DNA of 64,000 nucleotides from an uncultured Candidatus Saccharibacteria bacterium (GCA_964363965.1 CAYIKH010000001.1:727-64726); one strand, 5' to 3'. Shown: positions 2,670 through 43,674, counted from the first letter of the stretch. Notes: generated from the letters alone by a model not told the origin. Numbers and translations: made by a program.

Positions 2670-2928
2670 TTAACGTTTTAAAACATAAAGATATTTCAAA
2701 CCATCATATCATAGTTATGTTAAATAACAAGACACGCAAATTGAGAGCGATCCGCTGAAGTGGCAGATAGAGATCGTATTGTCTCCGGCTACCGGGAGGA
2801 TGATACCATCGTCGGGCTCAGGCGTCGCGAGGTCCGCAGCCGCTGTTTTTATTTCCGGAGTTGTTATATATAGTAGAAGTGAAGTATTCGTTCAGAAACA
2901 GATTCTCACTGGGTGATGTTGTATTAAC

Positions 2929-3744: not shown

Positions 3745-3886
3745 TACTTGTTATGTCAGAAAATTCGTCCAAAGTTCTCGGAATTGTCCCGCTGGATTTC
3801 ACCCGCGTGCCGATTCAGAAGCATTTCGTGGATTGAAGAGCGTCGGGCAATGTTCTCGGTGGTGATCCGAAGTTTCTGGCATCTCT

Positions 3887-4573
3887 ATGAAGTTTTCCTT
3901 GGTCATTCCGGCATATAATGAAGAGGAGAGTATCGGGGCGGCGGTGCGCGGTCTTCGGGATGCTCTCGGGCGCGTCGAGCATTCGTTCGAGATCATCGTG
4001 GTCAACAATGGTTCGACCGACGGGACTCCCCGCGTTCTCGAGGAGCTCCGAGCCGATGTTCCGGAGCTTGCGGTCGTGCGGGTAGACGTGAATCGCGGTT
4101 ACGGCAACGGGGTCATTGCTGGCCTCCGCGAAGCCCAAGGGGAAATTCTGGGTTGGGTGGATGCCGACAATCAGGTCGCGCCGGAAGACGTCGCGGCCGT
4201 ATATCGGGAAATCCTGCATGGGGGCGCTGATCTTGTCAAAGCCGTCCGGACGACGCGCCGTGAGTCGCGTTTCCGGAGGCTCCAGAGTGTTGTCTATAAT
4301 GCTATCTTCCGCATCCTTTTCGGCGGCAGATACCGCGATATCAACGCGAAACCGAAAATGTTTCGGCGCTCGCTTTGGGAGTCGCTCCACGTCACATCGC
4401 TTGATTTTTTCATCGATGCCGAGGTAATGATAAGGGTGATACGCGCTCGGCGTCAGATTCGGGAAGTCGAGGTATCGTGGGCGGCCCGCACCTCCGGCCG
4501 ATCGAGCGTGCAGCCGTCCGCGGCGGTCGAATTTTTGAAGAACTTGCTCCGCTATAAATTTTTTAGAGATTAA
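3887..4573 (+). CDS. GT2 glycosyltransferase, DPM1/GtrB-like polyprenyl-phosphate sugar synthase
   Basis: Begins SLVIPAYNEEESIGAAV... with a VNNGSTDGT DxD-region and a 228-aa architecture typical of Dpm1/ArnC-like enzymes. Confidence 0.75.
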   Translation: MKFSLVIPAYNEEESIGAAVRGLRDALGRVEHSFEIIVVNNGSTDGTPRVLEELRADVPELAVVRVDVNRGYGNGVIAGLREAQGEILGWVDADNQVAPEDVAAVYREILHGGADLVKAVRTTRRESRFRRLQSVVYNAIFRILFGGRYRDINAKPKMFRRSLWESLHVTSLDFFIDAEVMIRVIRARRQIREVEVSWAARTSGRSSVQPSAAVEFLKNLLRYKFFRD

Positions 4574-4578
4574 TTCGT

Positions 4579-5415
4579 ATGGAATCTCGTGCTTCCGCGT
4601 CGCTTCAGGATTCAAAGAGTGTCCATGCCGATATGCCGGTCGTGATTTTTTGCGGCGGGCGGGGCACGCGCCTCAAAGAGGAAACGGGCGCGATCCCGAA
4701 GCCCCTCGTGAAAATCGGCACGCATCCGATCCTGTGGCACATTATGAAGGGTTACCACGCCCAGGGATTCCGGAAGTTCGTGCTCTTAGTCGGGTATCTC
4801 GGTGAGAAGATAAAAGAGTATTTCTATACGTATCCGGTTTATCATGGCAGTTTCACGATCCGACCCGGTGCGAACGGGCCCAGGATCGATTACCATGACG
4901 TCCCGCCCGAAGACTGGGAGGTCACAGTGCTTGATACCGGCATTGACGTCGAAACCGGCGGACGGCTCCAGCGCGCGAAATCACATCTTGGGCAAGGGAG
5001 ATTTCTGCTCACCTACGGGGACGGCGTTGCCGATGTGAACGTAGAGGAGCTCATCCGGTTCCATGACACTCACCGTCCGGTCGTGACCATCACCGGGGTT
5101 CATCCGCCGAGCCGTTTCGGAGCCCTGGAGATGGATGGTCCGCTCGCCAAAACGTTTTTCGAAAAGCCGAGCACCCAGTCTTCCTACATCAACGGAGGTT
5201 TTTTCGTTGTGGAGCCGTCAATATTCATGTTTCTTTCCGATGACCCAAAACTGAATTTCGAGAAAGACGTTTTGCGCAAGCTCGCGCGCGAGTCAAACCT
5301 CGCGGTCTATCCCCATCACGGCTATTGGCAGTGCATGGATACCATTCGCGACGTCGAGTTCTTGAACGAGGAATGGGCCAAGAACCAAGCGCCCTGGAAA
5401 GTATGGAACGACTAA
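4579..5415 (+). CDS. rfbF: Glucose-1-phosphate cytidylyltransferase
   Basis: VIFCGGRGTRLKEETGAIPKPLV and GYHAQGF are RfbF signatures. The true start may be the ATG at 4633 (MPVVIF...). Confidence 0.8.
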   Translation: MESRASASLQDSKSVHADMPVVIFCGGRGTRLKEETGAIPKPLVKIGTHPILWHIMKGYHAQGFRKFVLLVGYLGEKIKEYFYTYPVYHGSFTIRPGANGPRIDYHDVPPEDWEVTVLDTGIDVETGGRLQRAKSHLGQGRFLLTYGDGVADVNVEELIRFHDTHRPVVTITGVHPPSRFGALEMDGPLAKTFFEKPSTQSSYINGGFFVVEPSIFMFLSDDPKLNFEKDVLRKLARESNLAVYPHHGYWQCMDTIRDVEFLNEEWAKNQAPWKVWND

Positions 5416-6410
5416 CACGCCACGCCGCCACCCCAAGGGGTGGTTTCTGGAGCAAGCGCCGAGTGCTGGTCACCGGCGGCGCGGGGTTCATTGGTTTTAA
5501 GCTCGCTTGTCATCTTCGCGATAGGGGAGCCGAGGTTACGCTCCTTGACATTAAAAAAGCATTGCCGAGCTTTGCCAACCCCGTCGACAAACGTACGTTC
5601 GTATATGTGCGCGGCAGCGTGACATCCCGGAAAACGGTTGCATCACTTCTTAAGCGCCGCAACGTCCAGACCGTATTCCATCTTGCCGCGGAGGCGATCG
5701 TGGGCCGGGCACTCCGCGATCCCGCGGCGGCGCTTGAAGCGAATGTCCGCGGCACGTGGGTGCTCCTCGAATGCGTGCGTCAAAATCCGAACGTGGCCGA
5801 GGTCGTTGTCGCGTCTTCAGACAAGGCGTACGGATCTCATGCGCGCCTTCCGTACCGCGAAGATGCCAAACTCGCCGGGCTGAATCCGTATGACTGCTCA
5901 AAAAGCTCGGCTGACCTCATTGCGCAAATGTATGCGCGTACCTATGCGTTGCCGGTTGCCGTTGCCCGGTGCGGGAACGTCTACGGCGGAGGGGACCTCA
6001 ACTGGAGTCGCCTTGTTCCCGATGCCCTCCGATCGCTCGCGAGCGGCACGCCGCTTCAGTTGAGGAGTGACGGCACGCATACACGGGATTACGTGTACGT
6101 GGATGATGTTCTCGACGGCTACCGCGTCCTAGCCGAGAATATTCGCCGGAAAAAACTCTCCGGCGAAGCGTTTAACTTCGGAACGAATGAACCGCTTTCG
6201 GTGCGCGATGTTTTGGGCCTAATCGCCCGCGCCGCGGGCCGAATGGTGCCCTCGAGAATCGCGAACACGCCCTCGCGCGAAATTCGTTCGCAGTATTTGG
6301 ATTGGAGTAAGGCTCGGCGCGTTCTGGGTTGGCGCCCGAATGTGCGGCGAACAATCGGTTTCAAGAAAACTGCCGACTGGTACACGGATTTTTTCAGCCG
6401 GCCAACATGA
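5403..6410 (+). CDS. rfbG: CDP-glucose 4,6-dehydratase
   Basis: FWSKRRVLVTGGAGFIGFKL, DKAYG and YDCSKSSADLI (Y-x3-K) are present. The start was chosen at MERLTR, so the full ORF frame extends further upstream; the gene overlaps the rfbF end. Confidence 0.75.
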   Translation: MERLTRHAATPRGGFWSKRRVLVTGGAGFIGFKLACHLRDRGAEVTLLDIKKALPSFANPVDKRTFVYVRGSVTSRKTVASLLKRRNVQTVFHLAAEAIVGRALRDPAAALEANVRGTWVLLECVRQNPNVAEVVVASSDKAYGSHARLPYREDAKLAGLNPYDCSKSSADLIAQMYARTYALPVAVARCGNVYGGGDLNWSRLVPDALRSLASGTPLQLRSDGTHTRDYVYVDDVLDGYRVLAENIRRKKLSGEAFNFGTNEPLSVRDVLGLIARAAGRMVPSRIANTPSREIRSQYLDWSKARRVLGWRPNVRRTIGFKKTADWYTDFFSRPT

Positions 6411-7690
6411 TGAATCTTGAATATCCCAAACACCACTTGGTGAACGTCGGGCATATACCCAATTGCCAAATATGCAATTCCGCGAAACTCCACACGGTCT
6501 TAGACCTCGGGCACCAGCCGTTATGCGACACGTTGCTCACCGACGCGATGCTTAACGAACCCGAGAAAACGTATCCGCTGCGGATGATGTGGTGCGAAGA
6601 GTGCACCGGCGCTCAAATTGATTACTGCGTTGACGGGAGTGAAGTGTACTATCCGGGTTATCCCTATAAGAGCGGTGTTACGAAGGAGCTCGTCGAGTAT
6701 CAAGTAAACATCGCGCGCGGTCTCGTGGGAAAATATGGATTAAAAGCTGGCGATCTCGTCGTTGATGTCGGTTCGAACGACGGAACGTTGCTCAGCGGGT
6801 TCACGGGTACGGGCATTCGGACGCTCGGAGTCGAGCCAACCAATATCGCGAAGATGGCCAAAGCCAGCGGCATCGAAACTGTGCAGTCCTTTTTCGACAT
6901 CAAGACGTCGCAGGCGATCAAGGAGCAATACGGTTCGGCCTCCGTAGTTATCACGACAAATACATTCGCCCACATGCGCACGATCGGAGAGTTCATCATG
7001 GGGGCCTATAATCTCCTGAACGATGACGGCGTATTCATGTCCGAAACCCATTATCTATTGGACGTCGTTCGGGGAGGGCAATTCGACACGATATATCACG
7101 AACATTTGCGGACGTACTCGCTCGCGTCCTTGATTCGATTGTTCGATCAGTATGATTTTACCCTGACCGATGCGGAACGGGGGGAGAGATACGGCGGCAA
7201 TATTCGCGTGTATGTTGCGAAGGGGAAGGGGAGGCCCGTCTCCCCGGCAGTCGCGGCGTTATTGCAACTGGAACAATCATCCGGGCTTGGAGAATATAAA
7301 ACGTATGCGGCATTTGCCGAGCGCGTGAAAAAAGCGCGCCTCGAATTCATGGATTTTCTCATTCATGCTAAAAAGGCCGCGAAGTCCATTGTCGGGAACT
7401 CGTGCCCGGGGCGATCCGTGACGCTTCTCAATTACTACGGGGTAGATCCGGAATTGCTGCCGTACGTCGCCGAACAGCCCGCTTCTTTGAAGTTGGGCAT
7501 GTACGTGCCGGGCACGCATCAGCCGGTGGTCGCGAACCAGCGGCTCATTGACGAGCAGCCGGATTTTGTCGTGCTGTTGGCGTGGCACTACGCAGAACCC
7601 ATTATGGAGCAATTGAAAGCTCGGGGACTGAAGTCGGATTTCATCATTCCGCTGCCCGATTTTCGAATCGTGAAAAATTCCGAGGTGTGA
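6407..7690 (+). CDS. NDP-hexose C-methyltransferase (TylC3/Methyltransf_13+14 type), CDP-pathway associated
   Basis: An N-terminal Cys-rich Zn motif (CQICNS...CDTLL...CEEC) precedes the SAM fold (VVDVGSNDGTLL) and a C-methyltransferase C-terminal domain. Its ATGA overlaps the rfbG stop. Confidence 0.7.
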   Translation: MMNLEYPKHHLVNVGHIPNCQICNSAKLHTVLDLGHQPLCDTLLTDAMLNEPEKTYPLRMMWCEECTGAQIDYCVDGSEVYYPGYPYKSGVTKELVEYQVNIARGLVGKYGLKAGDLVVDVGSNDGTLLSGFTGTGIRTLGVEPTNIAKMAKASGIETVQSFFDIKTSQAIKEQYGSASVVITTNTFAHMRTIGEFIMGAYNLLNDDGVFMSETHYLLDVVRGGQFDTIYHEHLRTYSLASLIRLFDQYDFTLTDAERGERYGGNIRVYVAKGKGRPVSPAVAALLQLEQSSGLGEYKTYAAFAERVKKARLEFMDFLIHAKKAAKSIVGNSCPGRSVTLLNYYGVDPELLPYVAEQPASLKLGMYVPGTHQPVVANQRLIDEQPDFVVLLAWHYAEPIMEQLKARGLKSDFIIPLPDFRIVKNSEV

Positions 7691-7720
7691 GCTGACGGCG
7701 CTTACCAGCGCCTCCTCGAC

Positions 7721-8647
7721 ATGGCCCAGTTAAAAATCGCAATTCTCGGAGCGAGCGGCATCGGAAGATTTCATTTCAGAGAGTTTGCGCGCGCGGGAGT
7801 CAAAGTCACCGCCATTCTCGGAAGCAGTTACGAAACCGCCGAGAGGACTGCCGTCATGCTCTCTTCGGAATTCGGCCTGCGTCCGAAAGCGTATTCGGAA
7901 TTGGGCGTCCTTATTGAAGCCGAGCGCCCGGATGCCGCGAGCGTTTGCACTCCTCCCGAACTTCACTATGACCAGGTAAAGATGTGCCTCGCGGCGGGAT
8001 TGCATGTTCTTTGCGAAAAGCCGTTTGTCCTTAACTCCGATGGCGATGCGAGCGGTCTCGCGACCGAGCTCGTTCGGTTGGCGAAGAAACGGGGGCGAGT
8101 CATTACGGTGAACACCCAATGGCCTTCCGTTTTACGGTACGTACAGCCGTTCGTTGATGTTTCCAAAATCCGGGACTTTTTCATGTATACCCAGCCGGGC
8201 GTCCGGGGGGCAGGCATATTGAGGGATCACCCGCCGCATGCGAACAGTATGCTGGTAAAACTCGTTCCGGATGGACGAGCGGAAGACATAGAATTTCTGG
8301 TATCTTCTCCAGAAGAGATGGATGTCAATTTCGAATATCGCGCGCGCGGCTCACGTTGCGCCGTCCGCTACAAATTCAAATTCAAAGCCGCGAGGCCCCG
8401 CGATCTTGAATTTTCCATCAACGGGGTTGCGTTCAAGCGGCATATCGGGGAAGGCTATAGCCAGAAACTCGTTACGGGTAAAACGGAAATTGATATCGAG
8501 GATCCGTTCAAAACTTCGATTGGAATGTTCGTTGGCGCCATCGAGGGGAGGAGTTCGCCATTGATCAGCACGCAAGAGATAATTGAAAATGTGCGGCTGC
8601 AGGACAGAATCATCAAGGCGTATGTAGCGGAAAAGGGCAAGCAGTAA
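7721..8647 (+). CDS. Gfo/Idh/MocA family NAD(P)-dependent oxidoreductase (candidate sugar 4-ketoreductase)
   Basis: The N-terminal Rossmann motif IAILGASGIGRFH is followed by LHVLCEKP. Confidence 0.75.
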   Translation: MAQLKIAILGASGIGRFHFREFARAGVKVTAILGSSYETAERTAVMLSSEFGLRPKAYSELGVLIEAERPDAASVCTPPELHYDQVKMCLAAGLHVLCEKPFVLNSDGDASGLATELVRLAKKRGRVITVNTQWPSVLRYVQPFVDVSKIRDFFMYTQPGVRGAGILRDHPPHANSMLVKLVPDGRAEDIEFLVSSPEEMDVNFEYRARGSRCAVRYKFKFKAARPRDLEFSINGVAFKRHIGEGYSQKLVTGKTEIDIEDPFKTSIGMFVGAIEGRSSPLISTQEIIENVRLQDRIIKAYVAEKGKQ

Positions 8648-8787
8648 CGTTTATCGTTTGGGAGCCGGGCGGTGAGTTCGAGGAGATCGCCCACTGACCT
8701 TCGTGAAAGAATCAACATCATCATGGTTAGGTACGACATTCCAACATTCTTGATAATGTGAGAATATCGCTTCATTAAAGTACGAAG

Positions 8788-10749
8788 TTGTTCATGTTTA
8801 CCCTGCTGATATTGAGTCTTTTTTTCGCCGCCACCCTTGCTTTCGGATGCGTTGTTGCCGCTGTTTTTTTGCCGAGCTCCGAACGGCGTTGGTACGTTGT
8901 GGCGCCGATCGTGCTCATTATTGGCCTGAACGGCTACGTAATGATCCTGAACCTCGTTGCATATTTGGTCCCTGTCCAGCGCGCGTTCTGGGTGGTGCTT
9001 ACGGGGATGAGTTTGGCCGCAGCGGCGGGATTGATGGCGATGCGGCGCCGGAAAACATCCCTGATTGCGCCGGATGACTTGAAACCTCGCCAACGGCAAT
9101 TCCTCGTGTTCACGACATTCGTTGTCATGCTCCTTGCCGGGTTCGTTTCCTACCTCACACTTGGAGATGATATCTATCTCGTGAATATGCCGCTTGCATC
9201 AACCATCAGCGAGGGAAACTTCCCCGTGCTCGATCCATCCGATCCGAGTTTTCGCGTCGCCTACCATTACGGGCCCGACCTGCTCATCGCGGCCCTTCAC
9301 CGTACGGCCCATATACCGCTCTGGCTCGGCTATGATATTCAAACCTTCCTTTTCATTGGTGCGGCGTTCCTCATGGCGTTTGCCCTCGCGCGTTCCGTTG
9401 TTTTGCGTTTCCGGAGCGCGTTCCTTGCCGCATTGCTGATGCTCTATGGGAGCGGCCTCGTCTGGATGAAGGGGTTCCACGGCATTGCCGTATTTTGGCA
9501 AAAATTAAGCGGCGGAAGCGCCGGCCCGGCCCCATGGAAATTCTTTGCCGACATGGCATTTCCTAATTTTGATTCGAGCATTGCGGCCACCACGAGCCAT
9601 ACCGTTATCATGGGCATGCCAATCGTCCTGCTCGTGTTGTATCTCTATAACCAGGCCATTGACGCCGAGCGCGATGCTTGGCTTCGGCCGACACTGCTTG
9701 CTGGCGTGCTTTACGGCTACACCGCTTTCATAGTCGAAACGCATTTCATCGTGATGTTCGCGGCATTTATCGGCATGCTGTTTCTCGAGGGAACGCGGTA
9801 CCTCTGGTCCGGGCGGCCTGCCGCTCGGCGCGATCAACTTCTGCGCCTTGCCGGCGTTACGGGTATTGTCATCGTCGTCGCCCTGCCCCTCGCATTTCTC
9901 CAGGGCGGGATACTCACGACCGTGAGCGATCCCGGCGCGACGCATCGATTCGAGCTGGTCAAACATTTTTGGAGCCAAGGCATTACCGATAAGCAGGTGC
10001 TTCCGTTCCGCTGGGCATTCTTCCAGGACTTCGGTTTGCCCCTTATCTTGTTTCTCCCCGCCCTTTATTTTTTCCGGAATGATCGGCGCGTTCAGTTCAT
10101 TGCGCTTATCGCCCTCGGAGCATTCCTGGTGCCGCTCCTTATCCGCTACACGCCATCACCCCGGGAAATGGAACGGCTTTTCGGTTTTGCGACACCGCTC
10201 TTTGCGTTTCTTGCCGGTCTTTTTCTTTCGGAGGTCGCTGCGGCATTCACGCTCAATCGTCATAGAAAAATGATCTCGTTCGCATTGCTTCTCCCCATCT
10301 TTGCCATGGTTGGCACCGCTCTTGCGGCCCAGGCCTTCGGTATTGCGTACCCGCTTGTGCGGCCCCAGGGCAGACATTATATGCTTGCCGCCGTTCCTCC
10401 CGAAGTTCCGGCAATTGACCAGAAGGCCTACGTCTGGATTCGGGAGCACACCATCCTTCAGGATTGGTTTTTCCCCTACAGTCAGGATTTTATCCGGGAA
10501 GTCGGGCGCTTCACTCCCGGGCCGTATTTTCCGGGCGTGACTCGGCCGAGTGTCATTACTGACTACGAGGAGGCCGTTCGTTCATGCAGTCGCGAGTCGT
10601 TTGCAAAACTCGGGGTTACCTACCTCTACGTTTCACCGCGGTTTCCGATCGCCGATTTTAAAATCCGGTGTCTGCCGAATCTTCACGCGACTCCGCTCTA
10701 TCAAGATGGTGTGGGCCCAGAAATGCGGAGCGTGTATCGGCTTGAATAA
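8788..10749 (+). CDS. Large polytopic membrane protein with C-terminal soluble domain; candidate GT-C-type glycosyltransferase
   Basis: 653 aa with more than 10 predicted hydrophobic helices, then a ~150-aa non-hydrophobic tail. No motif was confidently assigned. Confidence 0.45.
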   Translation: MFMFTLLILSLFFAATLAFGCVVAAVFLPSSERRWYVVAPIVLIIGLNGYVMILNLVAYLVPVQRAFWVVLTGMSLAAAAGLMAMRRRKTSLIAPDDLKPRQRQFLVFTTFVVMLLAGFVSYLTLGDDIYLVNMPLASTISEGNFPVLDPSDPSFRVAYHYGPDLLIAALHRTAHIPLWLGYDIQTFLFIGAAFLMAFALARSVVLRFRSAFLAALLMLYGSGLVWMKGFHGIAVFWQKLSGGSAGPAPWKFFADMAFPNFDSSIAATTSHTVIMGMPIVLLVLYLYNQAIDAERDAWLRPTLLAGVLYGYTAFIVETHFIVMFAAFIGMLFLEGTRYLWSGRPAARRDQLLRLAGVTGIVIVVALPLAFLQGGILTTVSDPGATHRFELVKHFWSQGITDKQVLPFRWAFFQDFGLPLILFLPALYFFRNDRRVQFIALIALGAFLVPLLIRYTPSPREMERLFGFATPLFAFLAGLFLSEVAAAFTLNRHRKMISFALLLPIFAMVGTALAAQAFGIAYPLVRPQGRHYMLAAVPPEVPAIDQKAYVWIREHTILQDWFFPYSQDFIREVGRFTPGPYFPGVTRPSVITDYEEAVRSCSRESFAKLGVTYLYVSPRFPIADFKIRCLPNLHATPLYQDGVGPEMRSVYRLE

Positions 10750-10905
10750 ATCAGCGAGAGGCTCAATAAAAAGAGCCGCGATCGTGCGGTTCGTGTTGGT
10801 CTGCGTCTGGCCGAGGGCCTTGGCTCCGTTACGATTGGCCCGGAGTGCGTTTCAGCTCGGAACGAGGAGGGGATCGGGATATGACCAGCGAGGAAATCGA
10901 GCATC

Positions 10906-11283
10906 TTGCCGAGTGGCTTAGGTATTATGGAGTTCCTGGCGTGCTACGCCTCGAGCTTATCGGTGGACGCCGCAAGGTTTGACAAGCTGGTCATAAATGT
11001 GGCTTTCGAGATTTCGCCGCCGCGCCTTGCCTGCAAAGCCCCGTCGCGGCTCTACGGCTTGAATCATTACAAAAAAGCGTTGAAAGTAGAGGGCGTTCGT
11101 CTTGTCCAGAGCCAGGAGGAATTGCTATTCTGGATTCATCGTTACCTTGATGATTCTGCTCTTGATAGGGAAGGGCGGCGGCGGCTTGTCCAGGCGCAGT
11201 GCTGGCAGACCGACGGCCGCGCCGTAGAGCGGATAGCCCGACGCATCCTGCGTGCTGCAGGTGTCATAACTCAAGCGTCATAA
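10906..11283 (+). pseudogene. 3' remnant of a TagF-like transferase paralogue
   Basis: The 125 aa align with the last ~125 residues of the proteins at 24722, 26128 and 36906 (for example YASSLSVDAARFDKLVINV and HYKKALKVEGVRLVQSQEELLFWIHRYLDDSALDREGRRRL match paralogue 2). No N-terminal ~330 aa is present upstream in any frame. Confidence 0.6.
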
Positions 11284-11302
11284 TAAGGGATGCGGACGCG
11301 TC

Positions 11303-13210
11303 ATGAACGCAATGTTTCAGTTGCGACTAAAATTTCCGTGGTGGTTGTGGCTGGCCGGCCTCGCTTTTTTGGTCGGCGCACTACACCTCGCGCCGAGCTT
11401 GTTCATCAAGGCCGCCATTGAGCGCATTGGGGGCTTGTATCTCCTTCCGCAAGTTGTCCATCCCACCCATTCCGACAGCGTCATGTGGTATGTTCCGGCG
11501 AGCCGCGAAGTGGCCGAAGGCCACCTCGTGCCATCGGACATCTATATTCCTACAAACAAGCGGCTTCCCTTTTTCCTCCCTCCGTTGCCGCTCATTTTCT
11601 TCGGCGCGCTCATCGCCCTTGCCGGAGATGCAAATTACGCCTACCTCGCGGCTTTGTTTGTATTTCCCGTAATCACGTTTTTCCTTTTCTATTGGCTGGG
11701 TCGGTTGTTCTTGGCATCGCGCCTTGGCAGCGCGGCGTTTGCCCTGGTCGGGACCTTAACGCCCGTGGCTCTCGCCTACCTGGGGCGAACCACGGAAACG
11801 CTGCAGCTTACCCCGCTCATAACCCTGAAGAGTTTTCTCCCGTTCGTCAGGACGCCCATTCCCGAACTCTATCTTTCGCGGATTACCGAGCCGCTTCTGA
11901 CCATTCCGCTCCTCATCCTGGGTTTCGGGTTTCTCTGGCGCTTTTGGATCCAGCCCTCGCCGCGGCGCGGGGCGCTCGCCGGCGGCGCGATGGCTTTGAC
12001 ACTCTACACGTATCTGCATTACTTTGCGTTCCTGGCGGGGTTCGGCGCAGTGCTCTTTTGTTTTTCGTTTGCGGTATCGCGCGAGCGCGCGAATCTCCGG
12101 GTATGGGCGATTTTCTTCGGCGCGATGGCCATCGGTATTCTGCCGTTTCTTTTCAATTACCTCGAACTCCGCGCTCTCCCGCAGTTCGGCGATTGGGCCG
12201 CTCGTTTGAGCGGGGCGTTTGAGCGCTGGCGCGGCATCCGCCTCTCGGCCTGGCGCGACTACATCCTCTACGCTATTCTCGCGATACCGCTGATACCGCT
12301 TTGGCGGCGCGACCGCAGATTGGCGATGTTCTTCGGGGCGGCTCTGGTTGCGATGGTGATGCTGTGGAATATTCAAATCGTCACCGGTTTTTCCATCATC
12401 CCGACGCACTGGCATAAGGCCTTTGGCGTCCCGCTCTATACCCTGGTGGCCGTTGAGCTCGCCTACGCGGCGGCCTCGATCAGCCAACATCCGCGTTGGC
12501 GCGTTAGGCGCCGGGCCATCGCGGCTGGTTTGACGGTTCTCCTCGTTTTCCTCGTTGCCAAGCGCATCATGAATGCCGCGGCTTACCTCTATCCCGACCG
12601 GCGTACCATGGCCGCCTTTTCGTTCCCAGCCGAGATTTACGATTCATGGCAGTGGCTGAATCAAAATGTTCCTTCCGAATCAGTGGTCCTCTCGACGTCC
12701 TATGTAACGTCGCTCTATCTCGCGGGTTATACGGACACGAATCACTACTTGCCGTTCGGCGACCTGACCCTGACTTCACGCCGCGATCTTGAGGAGCGAT
12801 TCCTTACCGCCCACAAGCTCTTCGGCGTTCCGGAAGAGCGGGTGCGCTTGCTCCTCCGCGGCAAGTACTATCCGCCCACGATATGCGATGTCGGCGGCGA
12901 GTGCGGCAACGAGCATAGCGAGCGAAATCTCCTGCGCGTGCCCCAGATGCTCTACAACGGCGCGTTCGATCCACGGCAGCACGGCCAGGATCAGCTTGAG
13001 CTTTCTTACGAGCCGCTGATTCCGCTTGCGGTGATTGATGATCTTATGGGACGCTACGAAAACGCCCGGCCCGATTGGAAGGATTTCCGGGGCGACTATG
13101 TCTACTATGGCCCGTGGGAGCGCGAGATTCATTCGGTCAACCTTAAGACCAATCCTCGCCTTGAGCTCTTGTATAATCGGGGCGGGGTTGAGATTTACAA
13201 GGTGAGGTAA
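11303..13210 (+). CDS. Large polytopic membrane protein with C-terminal soluble domain; candidate GT-C-type glycosyltransferase
   Basis: 635 aa with more than 10 hydrophobic helices and a C-terminal soluble domain. It sits next to the DPM1-like GT2. Confidence 0.45.
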   Translation: MNAMFQLRLKFPWWLWLAGLAFLVGALHLAPSLFIKAAIERIGGLYLLPQVVHPTHSDSVMWYVPASREVAEGHLVPSDIYIPTNKRLPFFLPPLPLIFFGALIALAGDANYAYLAALFVFPVITFFLFYWLGRLFLASRLGSAAFALVGTLTPVALAYLGRTTETLQLTPLITLKSFLPFVRTPIPELYLSRITEPLLTIPLLILGFGFLWRFWIQPSPRRGALAGGAMALTLYTYLHYFAFLAGFGAVLFCFSFAVSRERANLRVWAIFFGAMAIGILPFLFNYLELRALPQFGDWAARLSGAFERWRGIRLSAWRDYILYAILAIPLIPLWRRDRRLAMFFGAALVAMVMLWNIQIVTGFSIIPTHWHKAFGVPLYTLVAVELAYAAASISQHPRWRVRRRAIAAGLTVLLVFLVAKRIMNAAAYLYPDRRTMAAFSFPAEIYDSWQWLNQNVPSESVVLSTSYVTSLYLAGYTDTNHYLPFGDLTLTSRRDLEERFLTAHKLFGVPEERVRLLLRGKYYPPTICDVGGECGNEHSERNLLRVPQMLYNGAFDPRQHGQDQLELSYEPLIPLAVIDDLMGRYENARPDWKDFRGDYVYYGPWEREIHSVNLKTNPRLELLYNRGGVEIYKVR

Positions 13211-13227
13211 AGCAAATATTAGCCATC

Positions 13228-13986
13228 ATGTGGAACGGCAAAACCGTATCCGTGGTGCTAACCAGCTACCGAGAGAAGGACTCCATCCGCGAGGTTATCG
13301 AAGGTTTTTTTGCCACCGGCGTTGTGGATGAAGTAGTGGTAGTGGATAACAATGCCGAGCCGGGAAGCGTAGAGGAAGTCCGGAAAACGCGCGCCCGCCT
13401 CGTCTTCGAAAAAAAACAAGGACACGGTTATGCTTTGCAGGCCGGTATGAGGGAGTCGAGCGGCGACTACATAATTCTTTGCGAGGCCGACGGCACGTTC
13501 CAGCCGCGCGACGTAAGGATATTTCTGGTCTATGCCGAGGCGTTTCCGGTGGTTTTCGGCACCCGCACCAACAAAAGCATGATTGGCGCCGGTACGGGGA
13601 TGTTTTTCTTGCGGCGTATTGCAGATGTCATCGAGGCGAAGTTCATCGAGTATTTCTTCTGGACGTCGAACCTCACCGACATCGGCTGCACCTACAAGCT
13701 CCTCCGTCGCGAGGTGGTTGAGTTCCTCGAGCCCAAGTGGATCAAGGGCGACTCCCATTTCGTCACCGAGATTACTCTGCAGATTGCCGCAGCGAAAATT
13801 CCCTTCGTCGAAATTCCCGTCACCTTCCGGAAGCGCGTGGGCAAGTCGCTCGTTACTGGGAATTTCGTGAAGATCGCGACGTGGGGCATCAAGCTTTTCC
13901 TCTTTATCTGGCTATTCTGGTTTCGATGGCTACTCTCTCGAAAAATGCGGAGTGTCCGATTTGCGGCAGGAGTTCCTCGCCGCTAA
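13228..13986 (+). CDS. GT2 glycosyltransferase, DPM1-like polyprenyl-phosphate sugar synthase with C-terminal TM
   Basis: VSVVLTSYREKDSI...VVVVDNNAEPGS...ILCEADGT, with a hydrophobic C-terminal helix. Confidence 0.75.
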   Translation: MWNGKTVSVVLTSYREKDSIREVIEGFFATGVVDEVVVVDNNAEPGSVEEVRKTRARLVFEKKQGHGYALQAGMRESSGDYIILCEADGTFQPRDVRIFLVYAEAFPVVFGTRTNKSMIGAGTGMFFLRRIADVIEAKFIEYFFWTSNLTDIGCTYKLLRREVVEFLEPKWIKGDSHFVTEITLQIAAAKIPFVEIPVTFRKRVGKSLVTGNFVKIATWGIKLFLFIWLFWFRWLLSRKMRSVRFAAGVPRR

Positions 13987-14852
13987 GTTCGCGGCGGTTT
14001 CCGAAGTTTGTCGCCTGCGCCCGGTGCGGCGGTTTTTTTCTGGCTGATCCTGCCGCGGTGGGGACAGAATATGATGATGAGTATTTCGAGGCCTCCGGCG
14101 CGCCAACGCTCGCGAGCCGCTTGGCGCGACCGATATTCAATTTCTTTCTCTACCTTCGTTTTCGGAAGGTGCGTTCATTCCTCGGGGAGGGGCGTGCTCG
14201 CGTACTCGATTACGGCGCGGGCTCGGGGGCGCTGGTCGGCTACCTTCGCGCACGCGGAATTGATGCCGTTGGCTATGACCCCTCGCCAGCGGCAGTTATG
14301 GCTGCCGTTTCGAAGGGCATCCCGGTTTCCCGCGACCTTCCGCCGGGGCCGTATGACCTCATTATGTTTTGGCATAGTTTGGAGCATAGCGATAGGCCAA
14401 AACAAGTTCTCGATGAGGCGCGCGGACTGTTCGCTCCCGGCGGGAAACTCCTCATCGCCGTTCCCAATGCGGCGAGTTGGGAAGCCCGCCTCGCCGGTGA
14501 ACGCTGGTTTCACTATGATTATCCGTTTCATCGGGTTCAATTTACTCCCACTGCGATTACCATGCTACTGGAGCGCATCGGCTTCCGTGCCCTCAGCATC
14601 GATTTCTTCAATCCTGAATATACTGTCTCAGGATTTTTACAAACCTTTCTTAACTTCCTTTTTCTAAAAAATGCGCTCTACACGGTGGTCAGCCACCGAC
14701 GGGCGAACGTGTCGCAACAGAAGGCGATGTTTTCGGCAATGGCGGGGTTGCTCTTCCTCGTGGTGTTCTCGCCGCTCATCGGCGCATTCTTTATTCTCGA
14801 ATTCATTTTTCATAAAACCGGGGCCATAATCGTTACCGCAGAGCGACTATGA
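13926..14852 (+). CDS. Class I SAM-dependent methyltransferase with N-terminal Cys4 motif
   Basis: CPICG...CARCG is followed by VLDYGAGSGAL and a C-terminal hydrophobic segment. The start at MATLSK overlaps the GT2 end, and the longer ORF frame begins at 13737. Confidence 0.65.
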   Translation: MATLSKNAECPICGRSSSPLSSRRFPKFVACARCGGFFLADPAAVGTEYDDEYFEASGAPTLASRLARPIFNFFLYLRFRKVRSFLGEGRARVLDYGAGSGALVGYLRARGIDAVGYDPSPAAVMAAVSKGIPVSRDLPPGPYDLIMFWHSLEHSDRPKQVLDEARGLFAPGGKLLIAVPNAASWEARLAGERWFHYDYPFHRVQFTPTAITMLLERIGFRALSIDFFNPEYTVSGFLQTFLNFLFLKNALYTVVSHRRANVSQQKAMFSAMAGLLFLVVFSPLIGAFFILEFIFHKTGAIIVTAERL

Positions 14853-14919
14853 ACATGGAGCTCCGCGCAGCAGACCTGCCCGCCGGCAGGCGGGGCTGCC
14901 CAGTATCTCCAGTTCACCC

Positions 14920-15076
14920 AGCACATAAATTTACATCCGTCTCTGTCAAGACATTGATTTTGTGCGCGGTGAACTTCATTTTACGTTTGAGACCGTTGCA
15001 AATTTATGTGCTGGGTTTATTTGTTTGTCGTCATTCATCCCCGCCCCGACCGCGGTCGGGGCGGGGTATTCTGGGC
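14920..15076. repeat. Long-range inverted repeat plus GC-rich perfect hairpin in a 340-bp intergenic region
   Basis: Arm 14920-14932 (agcacataaattt) is the reverse complement of 15000-15012 (aaatttatgtgct). Separately, 15049-15076 is ccccgccccgacc-gc-ggtcggggcgggg, a 13-bp perfect stem. Confidence 0.6.
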
Positions 15077-15191
15077 AAACAAATAATCACTGGCAAAGAA
15101 GTTGCACGCTGCGTTTTCGTGCGCTAAGCTTGGAAATTGAGTGCAAGCCGTATGACTGGTCTTTCTTAGGATTTACGGTGAGTCACAAACT

Positions 15192-16253
15192 ATGGAAATA
15201 GATGCAGCGGTTTTAGATGCGATGATGGCGGAGCTTGAGCAGGCTCCGCGGCTCTGGCGTCCCTCCGCTTTCTGGGAGCGACTGAGCCGGATTCACGCCG
15301 AGCGCATTGCCAAGGTCGGCCTTTTGAATTTCAAACGCTCGATAAATCTGAAATATTTTAACTGGCGTATCAGCGCAATTCTGGCACATCAACTCTGGCC
15401 GGTGGCGGCGGAGCTTGTCCGCGGGAATTTTTCTCCGTTCCTCCATGCCGAATTTCCAGGCTACGCGCCACAGCCAGAGGTATGGACCAAGGGGTTCAAT
15501 TCTTTTTCGGCCTATATCTACAAAGTGTTCGTGGCCATGTTTGCGGATTACGTGTCGCGGCGTGACGTCCTTCGTCTTCTTGAAGTCGTCGAGGAACCAG
15601 AGCTCGGAAATCCCTTCTCAATAATCTATCGCGGGCGGCGCATCTCACAGGACCTCCTTAATTCCATACTTGAGTTCTACAGCGCAACGGAAGACATAGA
15701 TCCGCGAGGCAAGATTGGTTCCGCCGCCGAGATCGGGGCCGGTTATGGTCGCCTGGCTTACGCGTTTATGAAAGCGCTCCCGAGAGCGACGTATTGCATC
15801 GTAGATATCCCGCCAGCGCTCTTTGTTTCCCAGACATACCTTTCGCAGATATTTCCCGGAGAGCGTATATTCCGCTTCCGCCCCTTCGGCTCTTTCGGTG
15901 AGGTCCGGCAGGAGTTCGAATCCTCCCGCATCCGTTTCCTTATGGCTCATCAGATTGAGCTTTTACCGCCGAAATATTTTGATCTCATCTTGAATGTGAG
16001 CTCGCTCCATGAGATGACGCGCGACCAGATTGCAAACTACATCCGCTCTGTCGAGCGGATCGGACGGCGCCATTTTTATACCAAACAGTGGAAGAGGTCT
16101 CATGCGCGGGATAACAACTTTATTACGGAGCATGAATATCCGATTCCCGCAGGGTGGCAGATGGTCCACCATCGTACTCACCCCGTACAGCGCCCGTTCT
16201 TCGAGGCCCTCTACCGTGCTCGCGCGGTACGGGAGACCGACAAGTCCGTTTAA
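15192..16253 (+). CDS. Putative SAM-dependent (sugar O-)methyltransferase, paralogue A
   Basis: 353 aa with the glycine-rich EIGAGYGRLAY motif. It is ~70% identical to the protein at 20651..21700. Confidence 0.55.
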   Translation: MEIDAAVLDAMMAELEQAPRLWRPSAFWERLSRIHAERIAKVGLLNFKRSINLKYFNWRISAILAHQLWPVAAELVRGNFSPFLHAEFPGYAPQPEVWTKGFNSFSAYIYKVFVAMFADYVSRRDVLRLLEVVEEPELGNPFSIIYRGRRISQDLLNSILEFYSATEDIDPRGKIGSAAEIGAGYGRLAYAFMKALPRATYCIVDIPPALFVSQTYLSQIFPGERIFRFRPFGSFGEVRQEFESSRIRFLMAHQIELLPPKYFDLILNVSSLHEMTRDQIANYIRSVERIGRRHFYTKQWKRSHARDNNFITEHEYPIPAGWQMVHHRTHPVQRPFFEALYRARAVRETDKSV

Positions 16254-16316
16254 TCTCATGATTTGGGAGTTGCTGTTTCGGCGGACCGGTGCTATGGTAG
16301 TCACTGCCGAATTTCT

Positions 16317-17543
16317 ATGAGGACCAACCTTGCTTGCCGCATCTGCAGGAGCGATAAGTTGCGCGAATTTTTAAATCTCGGCGAACATCCCCTGGCCAAC
16401 GCCCTAGTCTCCAGAGAAAAGCTGGCAGAACCGGAGATGAGATACCCCCTGCGGGTTCTCTTTTGCCAAGAATGCGGCCTTTCGCAGCTCGGTGAGGTGA
16501 TAAGTCCGAAAATACTCTTCCGGGATTACGTCTATCTCACTTCCGGCATGCCTCGAGTTTCGGAGCACTTCCGAAATTACGCCAACGACATTGTTGATCG
16601 TTTTTCCAGGCCGGGAGGCCTGGTGGTAGAAATCGGATCAAACGATGGCATTCTCCTTGCGGCGGTCAAGGAGCGCGGAACACGCGTCTTGGGCATTGAC
16701 CCGGCTTTGAACATTGCCAAGGTGGCCAACGACCGGGGGGTTGAGACCATTCCCGATTTCTTTAGTCAGCATCTCGCTACTGACATCGCACGAAAGTATG
16801 GCCAAGCTGATGTTGTGATAGGAAATAATGTAGTTGCCCACATTGACGACCACCACGATCTCCTTCGGGGAGTGATAACCTTTTTGAAGCCGGACGGCGC
16901 TTTCATTTTTGAAGCTCCATATCTCCTGGATATGTTTGAGCGCTTGGCCTTTGATAGCATCTACCACGAGCACCTCTCCTACCTCTCCATTCGTCCGCTC
17001 CGGCGACTTATGCAGGATCACGAGATGGAGATATTTGATGTCAGGATGTTCCCGGTGCAGGGGGAATCAATTCGTGTCTTTGCCGGTCTTGCCGGGAAGC
17101 ATGCCATCATGCCGAGCGTTGCGAAGTTTCTTGAATTAGAAGAGAAGAGCGGCCTTGATGATTTTGAAAGCTACCAGGAGCTTTCCTCACGCATCCAGCA
17201 ACTAAAATCAGAGGTCGTTTCAACCCTCCACGATTTTAAGCGTCAAGGCAAACGCATCGCCGGCTATGGCGCCCCGGCGCGCGGCAATACCATTTTGAAT
17301 TACTACGGTATAGGCCCGGACATGCTAGAGTATGCGACCGAGGAGTTGCCGACAAAGATTGGTCGCTTCACTCCGGGCACGCATATCCCCGTCATTCACG
17401 TCGAGGAATCGAGGAAGAACCCGCCGGATTATTATCTGCTGTTGGCGTGGAATTATCTTGATGCCGTGCTCGAAAAGGAACGGGCCTTTCGCGAGCGTGG
17501 CGGTAAATTCATTCTGCCGGTGGGGGAAACGCGTATCATGTAG
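16317..17543 (+). CDS. NDP-hexose C-methyltransferase (second paralogue)
   Basis: CRICRS...CQECG Zn motif, VVEIGSNDGILL, and the same architecture as 6407..7690. The ORF frame opens at 16263. Confidence 0.7.
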   Translation: MRTNLACRICRSDKLREFLNLGEHPLANALVSREKLAEPEMRYPLRVLFCQECGLSQLGEVISPKILFRDYVYLTSGMPRVSEHFRNYANDIVDRFSRPGGLVVEIGSNDGILLAAVKERGTRVLGIDPALNIAKVANDRGVETIPDFFSQHLATDIARKYGQADVVIGNNVVAHIDDHHDLLRGVITFLKPDGAFIFEAPYLLDMFERLAFDSIYHEHLSYLSIRPLRRLMQDHEMEIFDVRMFPVQGESIRVFAGLAGKHAIMPSVAKFLELEEKSGLDDFESYQELSSRIQQLKSEVVSTLHDFKRQGKRIAGYGAPARGNTILNYYGIGPDMLEYATEELPTKIGRFTPGTHIPVIHVEESRKNPPDYYLLLAWNYLDAVLEKERAFRERGGKFILPVGETRIM

Positions 17544-17557
17544 CATAATGCGCAAGT

Positions 17558-18622
17558 ATGGCGGAACCTCGGCGTAATTTCCAAAACATTCTTGTCTGCG
17601 GCGGGTCCGGCTTCATGGGCTCGCATTTTGTCAATCATCTCTATCATAAGTATCCGCAGTATAAAATTTTCAATCTTGATCTTCTAACCTACGCCGGCAA
17701 TAACGCCAATGTCCGGGATGTTGAGCTGCATAAGATCGGCCTTCCGCCGGATGACCAGCGTTATCATTTCATCCATGGTGATATCTGCGATCGAGATCTT
17801 CTTAATTCGCTTTTCAGCGCCAATCGCTTTGCCACAGTAATCAACTTTGCCGCCGAATCTCATGTTGATCGTTCCATCATTGACTCCCAGGATTTCATCC
17901 GTACCAACATCCAAGGAGTGCATACCCTATTGGAGATGACCAGGAAATACAGCATTCCTAAGTTCATCCAAATTTCAACTGATGAAATCTACGGCGATGT
18001 GCCGGACGGCTGCTCGCACGAGGAAAGCCCCATCCGGCCGTCCAATCCCTACTCGGCGTCAAAGGCCAGCGCCGACGTGCTGGTCCAGGCATTTATTCGT
18101 ACCCACCGCGCACCGGCCCTGATCGTGCGCGGGTCGAATAACTTCGGTCCGTATCAGTACCCCGAAAAATTGATCCCGCTCGCGATCACGAGTTACCTCG
18201 AGGGCGGGAAGATTCCGGTTCACGGCAACGGCCGGCACGTTCGCAGCTGGGTTTACGTAAAGGATTTCACGAATGCCGTTGACCTCGTGATGCACCACTC
18301 ACCTCTCTATTCAATCTGGAACATCGGCGGCATGCAAAAGACAAACCTGGAGGTCATTCACAAAATCGGGGAGCTCCTTGGCAAAGAGCCGTCCGGGCAC
18401 ATCGAGCACATCTCCGACCGACCGGGGGCCGACCTCCGCTATGCGCTTGACAGCGGGAAAATTCGCCGGGAGCTCGGCTGGCAGCCAGCCTACGATTTCG
18501 ACACCGCTCTTGCCGAGACCGTCGCGTGGTATCGCGACAATCCCCAGTGGTGGAAGGCGATTCGGGCATCGGATACCTTCCGGCGCCACTACGAGAAGCA
18601 GTCCAAAGCGCAGTATTACTAG
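17558..18622 (+). CDS. rfbB: dTDP-glucose 4,6-dehydratase family
   Basis: ILVCGGSGFMGSHFV and YSASKASAD (Y-x3-K) at a length typical of RfbB. NDP specificity cannot be proven from sequence. Confidence 0.8.
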   Translation: MAEPRRNFQNILVCGGSGFMGSHFVNHLYHKYPQYKIFNLDLLTYAGNNANVRDVELHKIGLPPDDQRYHFIHGDICDRDLLNSLFSANRFATVINFAAESHVDRSIIDSQDFIRTNIQGVHTLLEMTRKYSIPKFIQISTDEIYGDVPDGCSHEESPIRPSNPYSASKASADVLVQAFIRTHRAPALIVRGSNNFGPYQYPEKLIPLAITSYLEGGKIPVHGNGRHVRSWVYVKDFTNAVDLVMHHSPLYSIWNIGGMQKTNLEVIHKIGELLGKEPSGHIEHISDRPGADLRYALDSGKIRRELGWQPAYDFDTALAETVAWYRDNPQWWKAIRASDTFRRHYEKQSKAQYY

Positions 18623-18629
18623 GCTTAAT

Positions 18630-19484
18630 ATGGCAAAGATTGCGGTGATCGGCGCAAGCGGCATGCTCGGCTATGACCTGATGAATGCTGGCCGGCCTGA
18701 CGACACGCTTGTGGGTTTGGCCCATGCCGATATTGAGATTACTGATCCGGCGAGCGTTGCTGTGGCATTAGAACGATGCCGGCCGGAGGTGGTCATCAAT
18801 GCTGTGGCCATCATCAAAACCGAGCTTTGCGAGACCGAGCCGGATCGCGCTTTTTTGGTCAACGCAGTCGGCGCTTACAATGTGGCCAAAGCCGCGGCTG
18901 GACTAGGGGCCGCAGTCGTTTTCATAAGCACGGATTACGTCTTCGACGGCTCCAAACCCTCTTTTACCGAAGAAGATGCGCCTTACCCCTTGAACGTTTA
19001 CGGCGCCTCCAAGCTTGCCGGCGAGATTTTGACAAAAATCGCAAACCCAAAGCATTTCATTATCCGCACCGGCTGGCTCTTCGGCAAAAAAGTGAGCCAC
19101 AAGGGATATAACTTTGTCACCCTCATGCTCGAGCGCGCCAAATCCGAGGCCGAAGTTCGGGTGGTCAATGATCAGACCGGCTCGCCCACCTATACGCTTG
19201 ATTTAGCACTGAAGATTTACGAGCTCATTAGACATCAAGCTCCCTTTGGTATCTATCACATCACCAATCAGGGCGGCGCCACGTGGTACGAATTCGCAAA
19301 AAAAATCTTTGAACTTTCGGGGGTAAGCCCACAACTCATCCCCATCACCACTGCTGAAAGCGGAACAAAAATCGCGCGGCCAGCGTTTTCCGTTCTCGAG
19401 AATCAAGGACTGCCAGAGTTCGGCATCTCACCGCTTCGTCCGTGGCAGGAAGCGCTCCGGGCGTACCTTGACGAAATAATGTAG
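18630..19484 (+). CDS. rfbD: dTDP-4-dehydrorhamnose reductase family
   Basis: MAKIAVIGASGMLG...YGASKLAGE. The start was chosen at MAKIAV, and the ORF frame overlaps the rfbB end. Confidence 0.75.
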   Translation: MAKIAVIGASGMLGYDLMNAGRPDDTLVGLAHADIEITDPASVAVALERCRPEVVINAVAIIKTELCETEPDRAFLVNAVGAYNVAKAAAGLGAAVVFISTDYVFDGSKPSFTEEDAPYPLNVYGASKLAGEILTKIANPKHFIIRTGWLFGKKVSHKGYNFVTLMLERAKSEAEVRVVNDQTGSPTYTLDLALKIYELIRHQAPFGIYHITNQGGATWYEFAKKIFELSGVSPQLIPITTAESGTKIARPAFSVLENQGLPEFGISPLRPWQEALRAYLDEIM

Positions 19485-43636: not shown

Positions 43637-43674
43637 ACTCATAACTCATAACTGGTAACCATTAACTACACCCG

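Follow-up and report, generated by a model that had tools for sequence, protein, structure and literature searches.

The present analysis concerns a 64-kb stretch of DNA (hereafter the window, on which all coordinates are counted) from a metagenome-assembled genome (MAG) of Patescibacteria, or candidate phyla radiation (CPR), and in particular a group of genes on its + strand that comprises two glycosyltransferase genes of family GT2, GT2_a and GT2_b, and two genes for large membrane proteins, memA and memB (Table 1). The four open reading frames (ORFs) had been named in an earlier reading made without database searches, hereafter the sequence-only reading, and all were found in place and on this strand. 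The public NCBI records label memA and memB hypothetical. Both are real genes and not chance ORFs, since memA has nine homologues at 37-95% identity and a memB profile finds at least 785 clusters at 50% identity (exhaustive HMM search, E≤1e-3). The memA ORF spans 8788-10749 and gives 653 aa from a TTG; the homologues and the NCBI gene call use the ATG at 8794, which gives 651 aa. The stop codon of memB is separated from the start of GT2_b by 17 nt. With a probability of about 0.72, the locus holds two modules that each add one unusual sugar to a surface acceptor outside the membrane, the lipid-linked sugar being made inside and attached outside.

According to hydropathy and AlphaFold2 secondary structure, memA comprises about 14 helices of membrane-spanning length followed by a soluble domain of about 130 aa, and memB about 10-12 transmembrane (TM) helices followed by a soluble domain of about 200 aa. 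The sequence-only reading had attributed to both proteins more than 10 TM helices and a soluble C-terminal domain: the domains are present in the two of them, and the helix count holds for memA and only roughly for memB. Such an architecture is that of the GT-C superfamily, whose members are polytopic, with about 8-16 TM helices and usually an extracytoplasmic soluble domain. In memA, three extra N-terminal TM helices precede the predicted GT-C core, the equivalent of the first extracytoplasmic loop (EL1) lies at about 125-177 and the putative extracytoplasmic C-terminal domain at 521-651. In memB, EL1 lies at about 43-93 and the C-terminal soluble domain at about 430-635, in which W451 is invariant and E606 is 98% conserved. 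The AlphaFold2 model of memA, built with 10 homologues, was usable (pLDDT 73, pTM 0.78); its fold matches aligned over 340-467 residues, and a fold search of the PDB indicated that the predicted resemblance is greatest to STT3B. For memB, two fold-search programs agreed in their GT-C ranking, the top 14 Foldseek matches all being GT-C enzymes led by STT3A and PglB. Judged by this modelled similarity to solved GT-C structures, memA and memB are most likely GT-C glycosyltransferases. Models resembling transporters, with neither a GT-C fold nor a catalytic loop, had been named beforehand as the outcome that would speak against the sequence-only reading; what was obtained were GT-C models and conserved acidic loop residues.

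The relationship between the two membrane proteins was not apparent from BLASTP, which found none between memA and memB, nor from a shallow profile comparison (5%), a result later overturned by a deeper profile. In fact, hhalign of the memA profile against a 62-sequence memB profile gave 97.8% probability (E 8.8e-13, 388 columns), and memA and memB are therefore remote homologues, which would make them remote paralogues within one previously unannotated GT-C-like superfamily. Since memA 125-551 corresponds to memB 53-453 in this alignment, memA carries three additional N-terminal helices; moreover, the homology allows the better structural evidence for memA to be carried over to memB. The alignment superposes memA D128 on memB D58, E142-G-N on E72-G-H (EGNFP and EGHLV), D149 on D79 and W550 on W451, so that a motif D…[E/D]-G-[N/H]…D is common to both in the first extracytoplasmic loop. 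In memA, the loop that follows the helix 100-124 contains the invariant D128, four residues past the helix, G143-N-F-P146 and D149-P-S151, and all 10 sequences compared, the most distant of them at 37% identity, keep D128, D149 and D183 unchanged. In the loop after the first helix of memB, examined in 62 diverse family members down to about 20% identity, D58 is 82% conserved, positions E69, E72 and D79 are acidic in 94%, 92% and 94%, respectively, and G73 is conserved in 97%. The conserved Asp/Glu residues that the sequence-only reading had proposed to look for in the first extracytoplasmic loop, a hallmark of the GT-C superfamily, were thus seen in both families, the outer side being suggested by the positive-inside distribution: Arg/Lys clusters of memA fall in the cytoplasmic-side loops of the model (85-99, 342-349, 429-434 and 490-493), which would place the loop 125-177 and the C-terminal domain outside. 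Conserved Cys pairs in the C-terminal domains of both memA and memB fit an extracytoplasmic location of these domains. A D-x-F-F-P-Y motif is also conserved at the C-terminus.

Regarding the two GT2 enzymes, the sequence-only reading had described them as DPM1/ArnC-like, and the matches to ArnC, DPMS, GtrB and AglJ do run the whole length of both. Searched against PDB sequences, GT2_a matched ArnC (2.5e-19), Pyrococcus furiosus DPMS (4e-14) and the GtrB protein sll0501 ahead of every other GT2, and the sole matches of GT2_b were DPMS (5mlz) and ArnC. Residues 1-223 of GT2_a align with DPMS 23-246, and its D92-A-D94-N-Q falls on the DADLQ motif of ArnC and DPMS; residues 5-211 of GT2_b align with DPMS 23-233, with E86-A-D88 at the DAD position. 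The features of the Dpm1/GtrB/ArnC subgroup, namely a GT-A DXD motif and similarity extending through the interface-helix region, were therefore found in GT2_a and, with an EAD variant, in GT2_b. The best NCBIfam matches were ArnC, AglJ, PgfS and Dol-P-hexose transferase for GT2_a and AglJ, Dol-P-hexose transferase and PpgS for GT2_b, AglJ being first or second for both. Identity between the two is 26%. As judged by sequence comparison, GT2_a and GT2_b are nearest to polyprenyl-phosphate glycosyltransferases over their full length, and are placed as members of the subgroup and not as orthologues of any characterised enzyme.

The pairing of such synthases with the membrane proteins is backed by gene fusions and by conserved cassettes in relatives. 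Members of the memB family that could be placed in genomes belong almost all to Patescibacteria (CPR MAGs), and MAGs of Saccharibacteria are among those with a homologue. N-terminal extensions were present in 11 of the top 150 representatives of the family, and among the 10 scanned against Pfam the extension was a GT2 domain in seven, GtrA_DPMS_TM in one (P0096), Methyltransf_23 in one (P0081) and GT4/GT1 in one (P0110). Two of the fused GT2 domains were checked, and their best NCBIfam matches were AglJ, Dol-P-hexose transferase, PpgS and ArnC. The Methyltransf_23 domain of P0081, which precedes the memB-like part, is 26% identical to the window methyltransferase 13926-14852. Of 20 CPR memB loci, collected by a genome scan with a 6-sequence alignment and hence biased to closer relatives, 14 have a Dpm1-like GT2 gene no more than 8 kb from the memB homologue, and in seven the distance does not exceed about 1.1 kb. 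GT2_b orthologues with 50% identity adjoin memB in L011 and L013, memB is followed by a GT2 gene in L030, and L028 keeps the order of the window, with memB at 65%, GT2_b at 78%, the membrane methyltransferase at 49%, the C-methyltransferase at 77% and RmlB at 77% identity. Among relatives of memA, L026 carries exactly the first cassette of the window (GT2_a 68%, cytidylyltransferase, dehydratase, C-methyltransferase, GFO reductase and memA 73%), L024 an arn-like set (GT2, SDR, aminotransferase, formyltransferase and AsnB, then memA), L025 a GT2_b-type gene, AsnB, an epimerase and a C-methyltransferase, then memA, and L001 a TagF-like gene, memA and then a GT2 gene. In these cassettes the GT2 and the GT-C gene are constant and the sugar pathway between them is variable, as expected if a cassette makes and transfers one lipid-linked monosaccharide. 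The association of a synthase with a GT-C protein that characterises three-component glycosylation systems is thereby present, and kept in L026, L028, L030, L011, L013, L024 and L025 as well as in the fusions. On the basis of this adjacency, and of the fusion to Dpm1-like GT2 and GtrA domains, the donor of memA and memB would be a polyprenyl-phosphate-linked sugar.

Additional features were observed in these related loci. The memB homologues of three CPR MAGs, independent of one another, align in two pieces with the same break, at query positions of about 157-175 (L017 8001-9906, L018 8001-9879 and L019 2166-4032), the N-terminal part being a separate ORF of 150-180 aa in L018 and L019; either a natural two-gene form or a frameshift that has recurred could account for the break. 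In two CPR genomes, memB paralogues stand back to back in tandem (L010 6148-9860 and L014 6074-9848), which suggests diversified acceptor or donor specificity. An asparagine-synthase-like amidotransferase (GATase_7 and Asn_synthase), absent from the window, lies beside the memA homologues of L001, L024 and L025 and hints at amidated sugars in these variants.

Within the window, the genes can be arranged into module 1 (3887-10749), with GT2_a, a CDP-hexose pathway (cytidylyltransferase, 4,6-dehydratase, C-methyltransferase and ketoreductase) and memA, whose product would be a C-methyl-6-deoxyhexose, and module 2 (11303-19484), with memB, GT2_b, a membrane-anchored methyltransferase and the tailoring of a dTDP-6-deoxyhexose (O-methyltransferase, C-methyltransferase, RmlB and RmlD). 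In the proposed mechanism, an NDP-6-deoxyhexose with C- and/or O-methylation would be made in the cytoplasm by enzymes of these families, and the Dpm1/ArnC-like GT2, to judge from its family resemblance, would load the sugar onto polyprenyl phosphate. The lipid-linked sugar would then be flipped by a protein that was not identified in the window, and memA or memB would transfer it to the acceptor by means of the conserved Asp/Glu cluster in the first extracytoplasmic loop.

Table 1. Genes of the two proposed modules and of the interval between them, with the matches that support each assignment.
Feature	Coordinates	Strand	Description	Matches
GT2_a, Dpm1/ArnC-like polyprenyl-phosphate glycosyltransferase (putative), heads module 1	3887..4573	+	228 aa, without TM helix	PF00535 6e-29
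Glucose-1-phosphate cytidylyltransferase-like, sugar activation, module 1	4579..5415	+		TIGR02623 2.1e-87, 292.8 bits (cut-off 300.25); PF00483
CDP-glucose 4,6-dehydratase-like short-chain dehydrogenase/reductase (SDR), module 1	5325..6410	+		TIGR02622 2.2e-57 (under cut-off); PF01370/PF16363
NDP-hexose C-methyltransferase, module 1	6329..7690	+	84% orthologue in L026	PF08421 + PF08484 + PF13489
GFO/IDH/MocA-type oxidoreductase, module 1	7721..8647	+	71% orthologue in L026	PF01408 3.7e-22
memA, GT-C-fold membrane glycosyltransferase candidate, closes module 1	8794..10749	+	651 aa	
TagF-like (Glyphos_transf) C-terminal fragment between memA and memB	10906..11283	+	125 aa	weak PF04464 match
memB, GT-C-fold membrane glycosyltransferase candidate, opens module 2	11303..13210	+	635 aa	
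GT2_b, Dpm1/AglJ-like polyprenyl-phosphate glycosyltransferase (putative), module 2	13228..13986	+	252 aa, one C-terminal TM helix (213-232)	PF00535 4e-18
Membrane-anchored SAM methyltransferase, module 2	13926..14852	+	Cys-x2-Cys…Cys-x2-Cys region, C-terminal TM segment	PF13489 8.5e-24 (Methyltransf_23)
NanM-like sugar O-methyltransferase, module 2	15192-16253	+		TIGR04371 1.5e-37
NDP-hexose C-methyltransferase, module 2	16263-17543	+		PF08421/PF08484
dTDP-glucose 4,6-dehydratase RmlB, module 2	17558-18622	+		TIGR01181 386.7 bits (above cut-off 365.1)
dTDP-4-dehydrorhamnose reductase RmlD, module 2	domain from ~18636, end 19484	+		TIGR01214 279.3 bits (above 224.05)

Some of the gene limits and functions given in Table 1 deserve comment. 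The listed TTG start of the SDR overlaps the preceding gene, and the true start is probably downstream of it. The GFO/IDH/MocA-type oxidoreductase is likely a sugar ketoreductase. The listed ORF of the membrane-anchored methyltransferase begins with a GTG at 13737, within GT2_b, the ATG at 13926 being the likelier start; its hydrophobic segment occupies residues 329-366 of the long ORF (hydropathy). A promoter and terminator scan of 2600-15200 gave counts no better than chance.

The defining logic of three-component extracytoplasmic glycosylation systems is here that set out in PMC11127046. The window shares with such systems (GtrA/GtrB/GtrC seroconversion, CsbB/GtcA/YfhO teichoic acid glycosylation and the pentofuranose system that founded GT136) a synthase gene adjoining that of a GT-C-fold transferase, the attachment of the modules to a larger glycan locus and, among memB relatives, the fusion to a GT2 or GtrA domain. 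However, a flippase gene is absent from the window and hardly ever present in related loci, memA and memB fall in no described Pfam GT-C family, each pair is packaged here with a full pathway for a branched or methylated 6-deoxyhexose instead of using a common UDP-hexose, and the host is a CPR bacterium. Concerning ArnC+ArnT (with ArnA/ArnB), the best similarity of GT2_a is to ArnC and the memA-homologue locus L024 is arn-like in gene content, but GT2_a lacks the two C-terminal TM helices of ArnC, a PMT_2/GT83 sequence signature is missing and the pathway in the window is CDP-hexose C-methylation, not UDP-Ara4FN; in addition, a CPR bacterium is presumed to be monoderm and hence devoid of lipid A, which ArnC+ArnT modify with aminoarabinose. 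As in the O-mannosylation by Ppm1/Dpm1 and PMT (GT39), the similarity of the two GT2s to DPMS runs through the catalytic and interface region and the window encodes secreted proteins with TPAPTPAP-type linkers; unlike in PMT, there is no MIR domain, and D…[E/D]G[N/H]…D stands in EL1 instead of a DE motif at its start. AftA, AftB, AftD and Emb of mycobacteria have in common with the proposed enzymes a polyprenyl-P-monosaccharide donor used on a cell-wall polymer, but no sequence similarity was found, and their donor, decaprenyl-P-arabinose, is PRPP-derived, whereas the pathway in the window runs through an NDP-hexose and a GT2.

When memA and memB were scanned against Pfam (E≤0.01) and NCBIfam, no model matched, including PF02366 or PF13231 (PMT, PMT_2, ArnT); weak PMT_2 matches occurred in only two of 62 memB relatives, the best at 8.5e-4. 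PF09586 (YfhO) was matched neither by memA and memB nor by the 62 relatives, and no YfhO structure was among the PDB fold-search matches listed. Searches of PDB sequences with single profiles and with the 62-sequence profile likewise gave no GT-C match for memA or memB. Membership in the PMT, ArnT, STT3 or YfhO families was not borne out at the level of Pfam and PDB sequence searches. The logic to which the sequence-only reading had pointed, in turn, that of ArnC+ArnT and GtrB+GtrC, gained support from the GT-C models, the conserved acidic loop, the polyprenyl-phosphate type of the GT2s, the fusions and the cassettes. Most likely the locus works like the GtrB/GtrC, ArnC/ArnT, Ppm1/PMT and CsbB/YfhO systems, its GT-C proteins not being sequence members of their families.

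The flipping step, also assumed by the sequence-only reading, found no counterpart, as the window encodes no dedicated flippase of the GtrA, ArnE/F, SMR or MATE type known from three-component systems. A tblastn of the GtrA domain over the 64 kb had no match, none of the window ORFs of 60-260 aa has two or more hydrophobic segments, so that neither GtrA nor ArnE/F nor another small multi-TM protein was found, and small flippase candidates are almost absent beside the memB homologues of the 20 CPR loci. Hydropathy scans of the window and 30 loci were negative save for L029, the GtrA fusion of P0096 being the other exception, and the extra N-terminal helices of memA showed no similarity to GtrA (E 0.038 over 32 residues). 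These results count against the proposed mechanism, and others do so as well. No sequence similarity to a characterised GT-C could be detected for either the memA or the memB family, and the catalytic residues are therefore assigned by position alone. The memB model, from six sequences, was poor (pLDDT 55.5, pTM 0.58), and the TM-scores of its Foldseek matches were just about 0.35. Neither GT2 reached an NCBIfam equivalog cut-off (88 bits against 529 for ArnC, 69-73 against 325 for AglJ), GT2_a has no TM helix by hydropathy, GT2_b has EAD in place of DAD, and we know of no described Dpm1-like enzyme that uses CDP- or dTDP-sugars. Finally, TagF-like genes are the commonest companion of memB, being found in 16 of the 20 loci and thus more often than GT2, so that memB may be tied to the polymer otherwise than by side-chain glycosylation.

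This last association leads to an explanation to which we give little credence, namely that memA and memB serve the assembly of a teichoic-acid-like polymer, the product of the TagF-like enzymes, which they would polymerise, ligate or anchor, the neighbouring GT2s being ordinary cytoplasmic transferases that act on the polymer. Besides their frequency, TagF-like genes lie directly upstream of memA or memB homologues in L001, L027 and L010, a TagF-like fragment directly precedes memB in the window, and a flippase for a monosaccharide lipid was not found. However, the GT2 partners are from end to end like polyprenyl-phosphate transferases and not like processive or polymer-acting GT2s, and the fusions of GT2 and GtrA to memB are hard to account for in this way; moreover, the known monoderm GT-C enzymes that travel with teichoic-acid genes (YfhO/CsbB/GtcA type) are themselves side-chain glycosyltransferases (PMC7389260). 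An oligosaccharyltransferase (OST) of the STT3/AglB/PglB type (GT66) is an improbable identity for memA, and perhaps memB, too: here an AglJ-like GT2 would start a glycan on polyprenyl phosphate, other cytoplasmic transferases would extend it and the GT-C protein would transfer it en bloc to protein, in parallel to haloarchaeal N-glycosylation from Dol-P carriers. The STT3A and PglB leaders in Foldseek, the rank of AglJ for both GT2s, the many further transferases of the locus and its secreted proteins with Thr/Pro-rich linkers are compatible with an OST, but the STT3 Pfam model (PF02516) matched neither protein, PDB sequence searches returned no OST, and neither WWDYG nor a DK/MI motif is present, the conserved C-terminal motif being the D-x-F-F-P-Y mentioned above; EL1 has DD and not the D-x-D of OSTs. 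Moreover, the genomic partner is a monosaccharide-lipid synthase and not a PP-oligosaccharide pathway, the cassettes enclose one monosaccharide pathway between GT2 and GT-C without additional transferases, and a GT-C protein fused directly to GT2 or to GtrA is what three-component systems for monosaccharides typically show.

It was also considered that memA and memB could be transporters, permeases or flippases of the locus glycan, their GT-C likeness being an artefact of weak models. The low confidence of the memB model, an Acyl_transf_3 label precomputed for one memA homologue and the lack of any other flippase near the modules would suit this view, but the same GT-C ranking was given for memB by two programs, profile comparison shows memB and memA to be homologues, and a conserved acidic extracytoplasmic motif together with large conserved soluble C-terminal domains suits enzymes, not carriers. 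A transporter identity was rejected on fold grounds and is very improbable. A more specific version of the two-module glycosylation reading is only tentatively put forward, and may well prove wrong: memA and memB would form a new CAZy GT-C family that installs rare C-/O-methylated 6-deoxyhexoses from lipid-linked donors on teichoic-acid-like polymers or surface proteins of ultra-small episymbionts; in place of a classical GtrA or ArnEF flippase, a protein not recognised as such (e.g., the SemiSWEET-like one of L029) or the extra helices of the transferase would act, and the membrane-anchored methyltransferase would modify the lipid-linked sugar.

Conceptually there is little surprise here, since the combination of a lipid-linked monosaccharide with a GT-C enzyme is well established. 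What is new is an undescribed GT-C superfamily by these criteria, nearly restricted to CPR among the located loci, packaged with dedicated rare-sugar pathways and devoid of a recognisable flippase; a literature search found no paper linking GT-C enzymes with Patescibacteria or CPR. A fold and a probable role are hereby assigned to an unannotated membrane-protein superfamily, tied to lipid-sugar synthases by fusions and cassettes. CPR bacteria depend on contact with host cells, and to our knowledge almost nothing is known of how they build their surface glycans; in the present case, a stretch of about 50 kb in a small genome is taken up with unusual sugars. If the proposal is true, a further GT-C family would be added, and the conserved Asp/Glu residues and partner GT2s would offer handles on surface decoration in cultivable Saccharibacteria.

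The acceptor is best discussed in the context of the surrounding glycan locus of about 50 kb, which includes three full TagF-like genes, two NeuB/CMP-transferase sets, a heptose pathway, GT4 and GT2 enzymes, a Wzy_C-TPR protein and a phosphoglycosyltransferase. Because no gene accompanies memB more often than a TagF-like one, and by analogy with CsbB/GtcA/YfhO, a teichoic-acid-like polymer built by TagF is tentatively favoured; the acceptor would most likely be a surface glycopolymer to which the TagF-like and other transferases of the locus contribute. A surface protein, such as a secreted one with TPAPTPAP-type linkers, would be the alternative. Two products plausible as O-glycosylation targets are a 264-aa Ser/Thr/Gly-rich protein with an N-terminal hydrophobic helix (52184-52978, +) and a 377-aa protein (53044-54177, +) with two PG_binding_1 domains and, between them, a poly-Gly run and TPAPTPAPAP-type linkers.

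The three full-length TagF-like proteins (24722-27501 and 36825-38243, +) are highly divergent, with Pfam E-values of 1e-6 to 1e-9 or no match, and against the PDB gave only a marginal match to TarL (E 0.05). The fragment 10906-11283, which the sequence-only reading had not mentioned, comprises just the C-terminal quarter of a TagF-like protein; its PF04464 match covers profile positions 317-366 of 367, and it shares 55.7% identity with the C-terminal end of the product (457 aa) of the TagF-like gene at 26128-27501. Since a full-length TagF-like gene stands immediately before the memA homologue in L001 as well as in L027, and before a memB paralogue in L010, the fragment is probably what a rearrangement has left of such a full-length gene.

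In L029, a small membrane protein with an MtN3_slv/SemiSWEET Pfam match (3241-3648) is encoded between a GT2 gene (2414-3136) and the memB homologue (3751-5604), at the position expected for a GtrA-type flippase, and could act as an unconventional flippase of lipid-linked sugar; in its 3′ half, the called ORF looks non-membrane. The sole flippase or transporter candidate of the window is a 285-aa EamA/DMT protein at 43675-44532 (+), 30 kb away. It belongs to a trio with a NeuC-like UDP-GlcNAc 2-epimerase and a CMP-sugar synthetase (41682-44532, +) that is conserved at 44-73% identity in L002 (11011-13807), and is thereby associated with a nonulosonic-acid pathway. At 45923-48253 (+), a protein of 776 aa combines about 13 TM helices and a Wzy_C (O-antigen ligase/polymerase) domain with a C-terminal TPR array; its neighbours are a UDP-glucose dehydrogenase fragment and, on the opposite strand, a Bac_transf phosphoglycosyltransferase and a GT4 gene, and this region is a second, separate route of extracytoplasmic glycan transfer. 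The first 2000 nucleotides of the window differ from the remainder in composition, with a GC content of 37.8% against 51-59% elsewhere and a strong negative GC and AT skew, and encode, on the minus strand, a PhnD-like phosphonate-binding protein (734-1642); this segment could be an island of distinct composition or mark a junction in the assembly.

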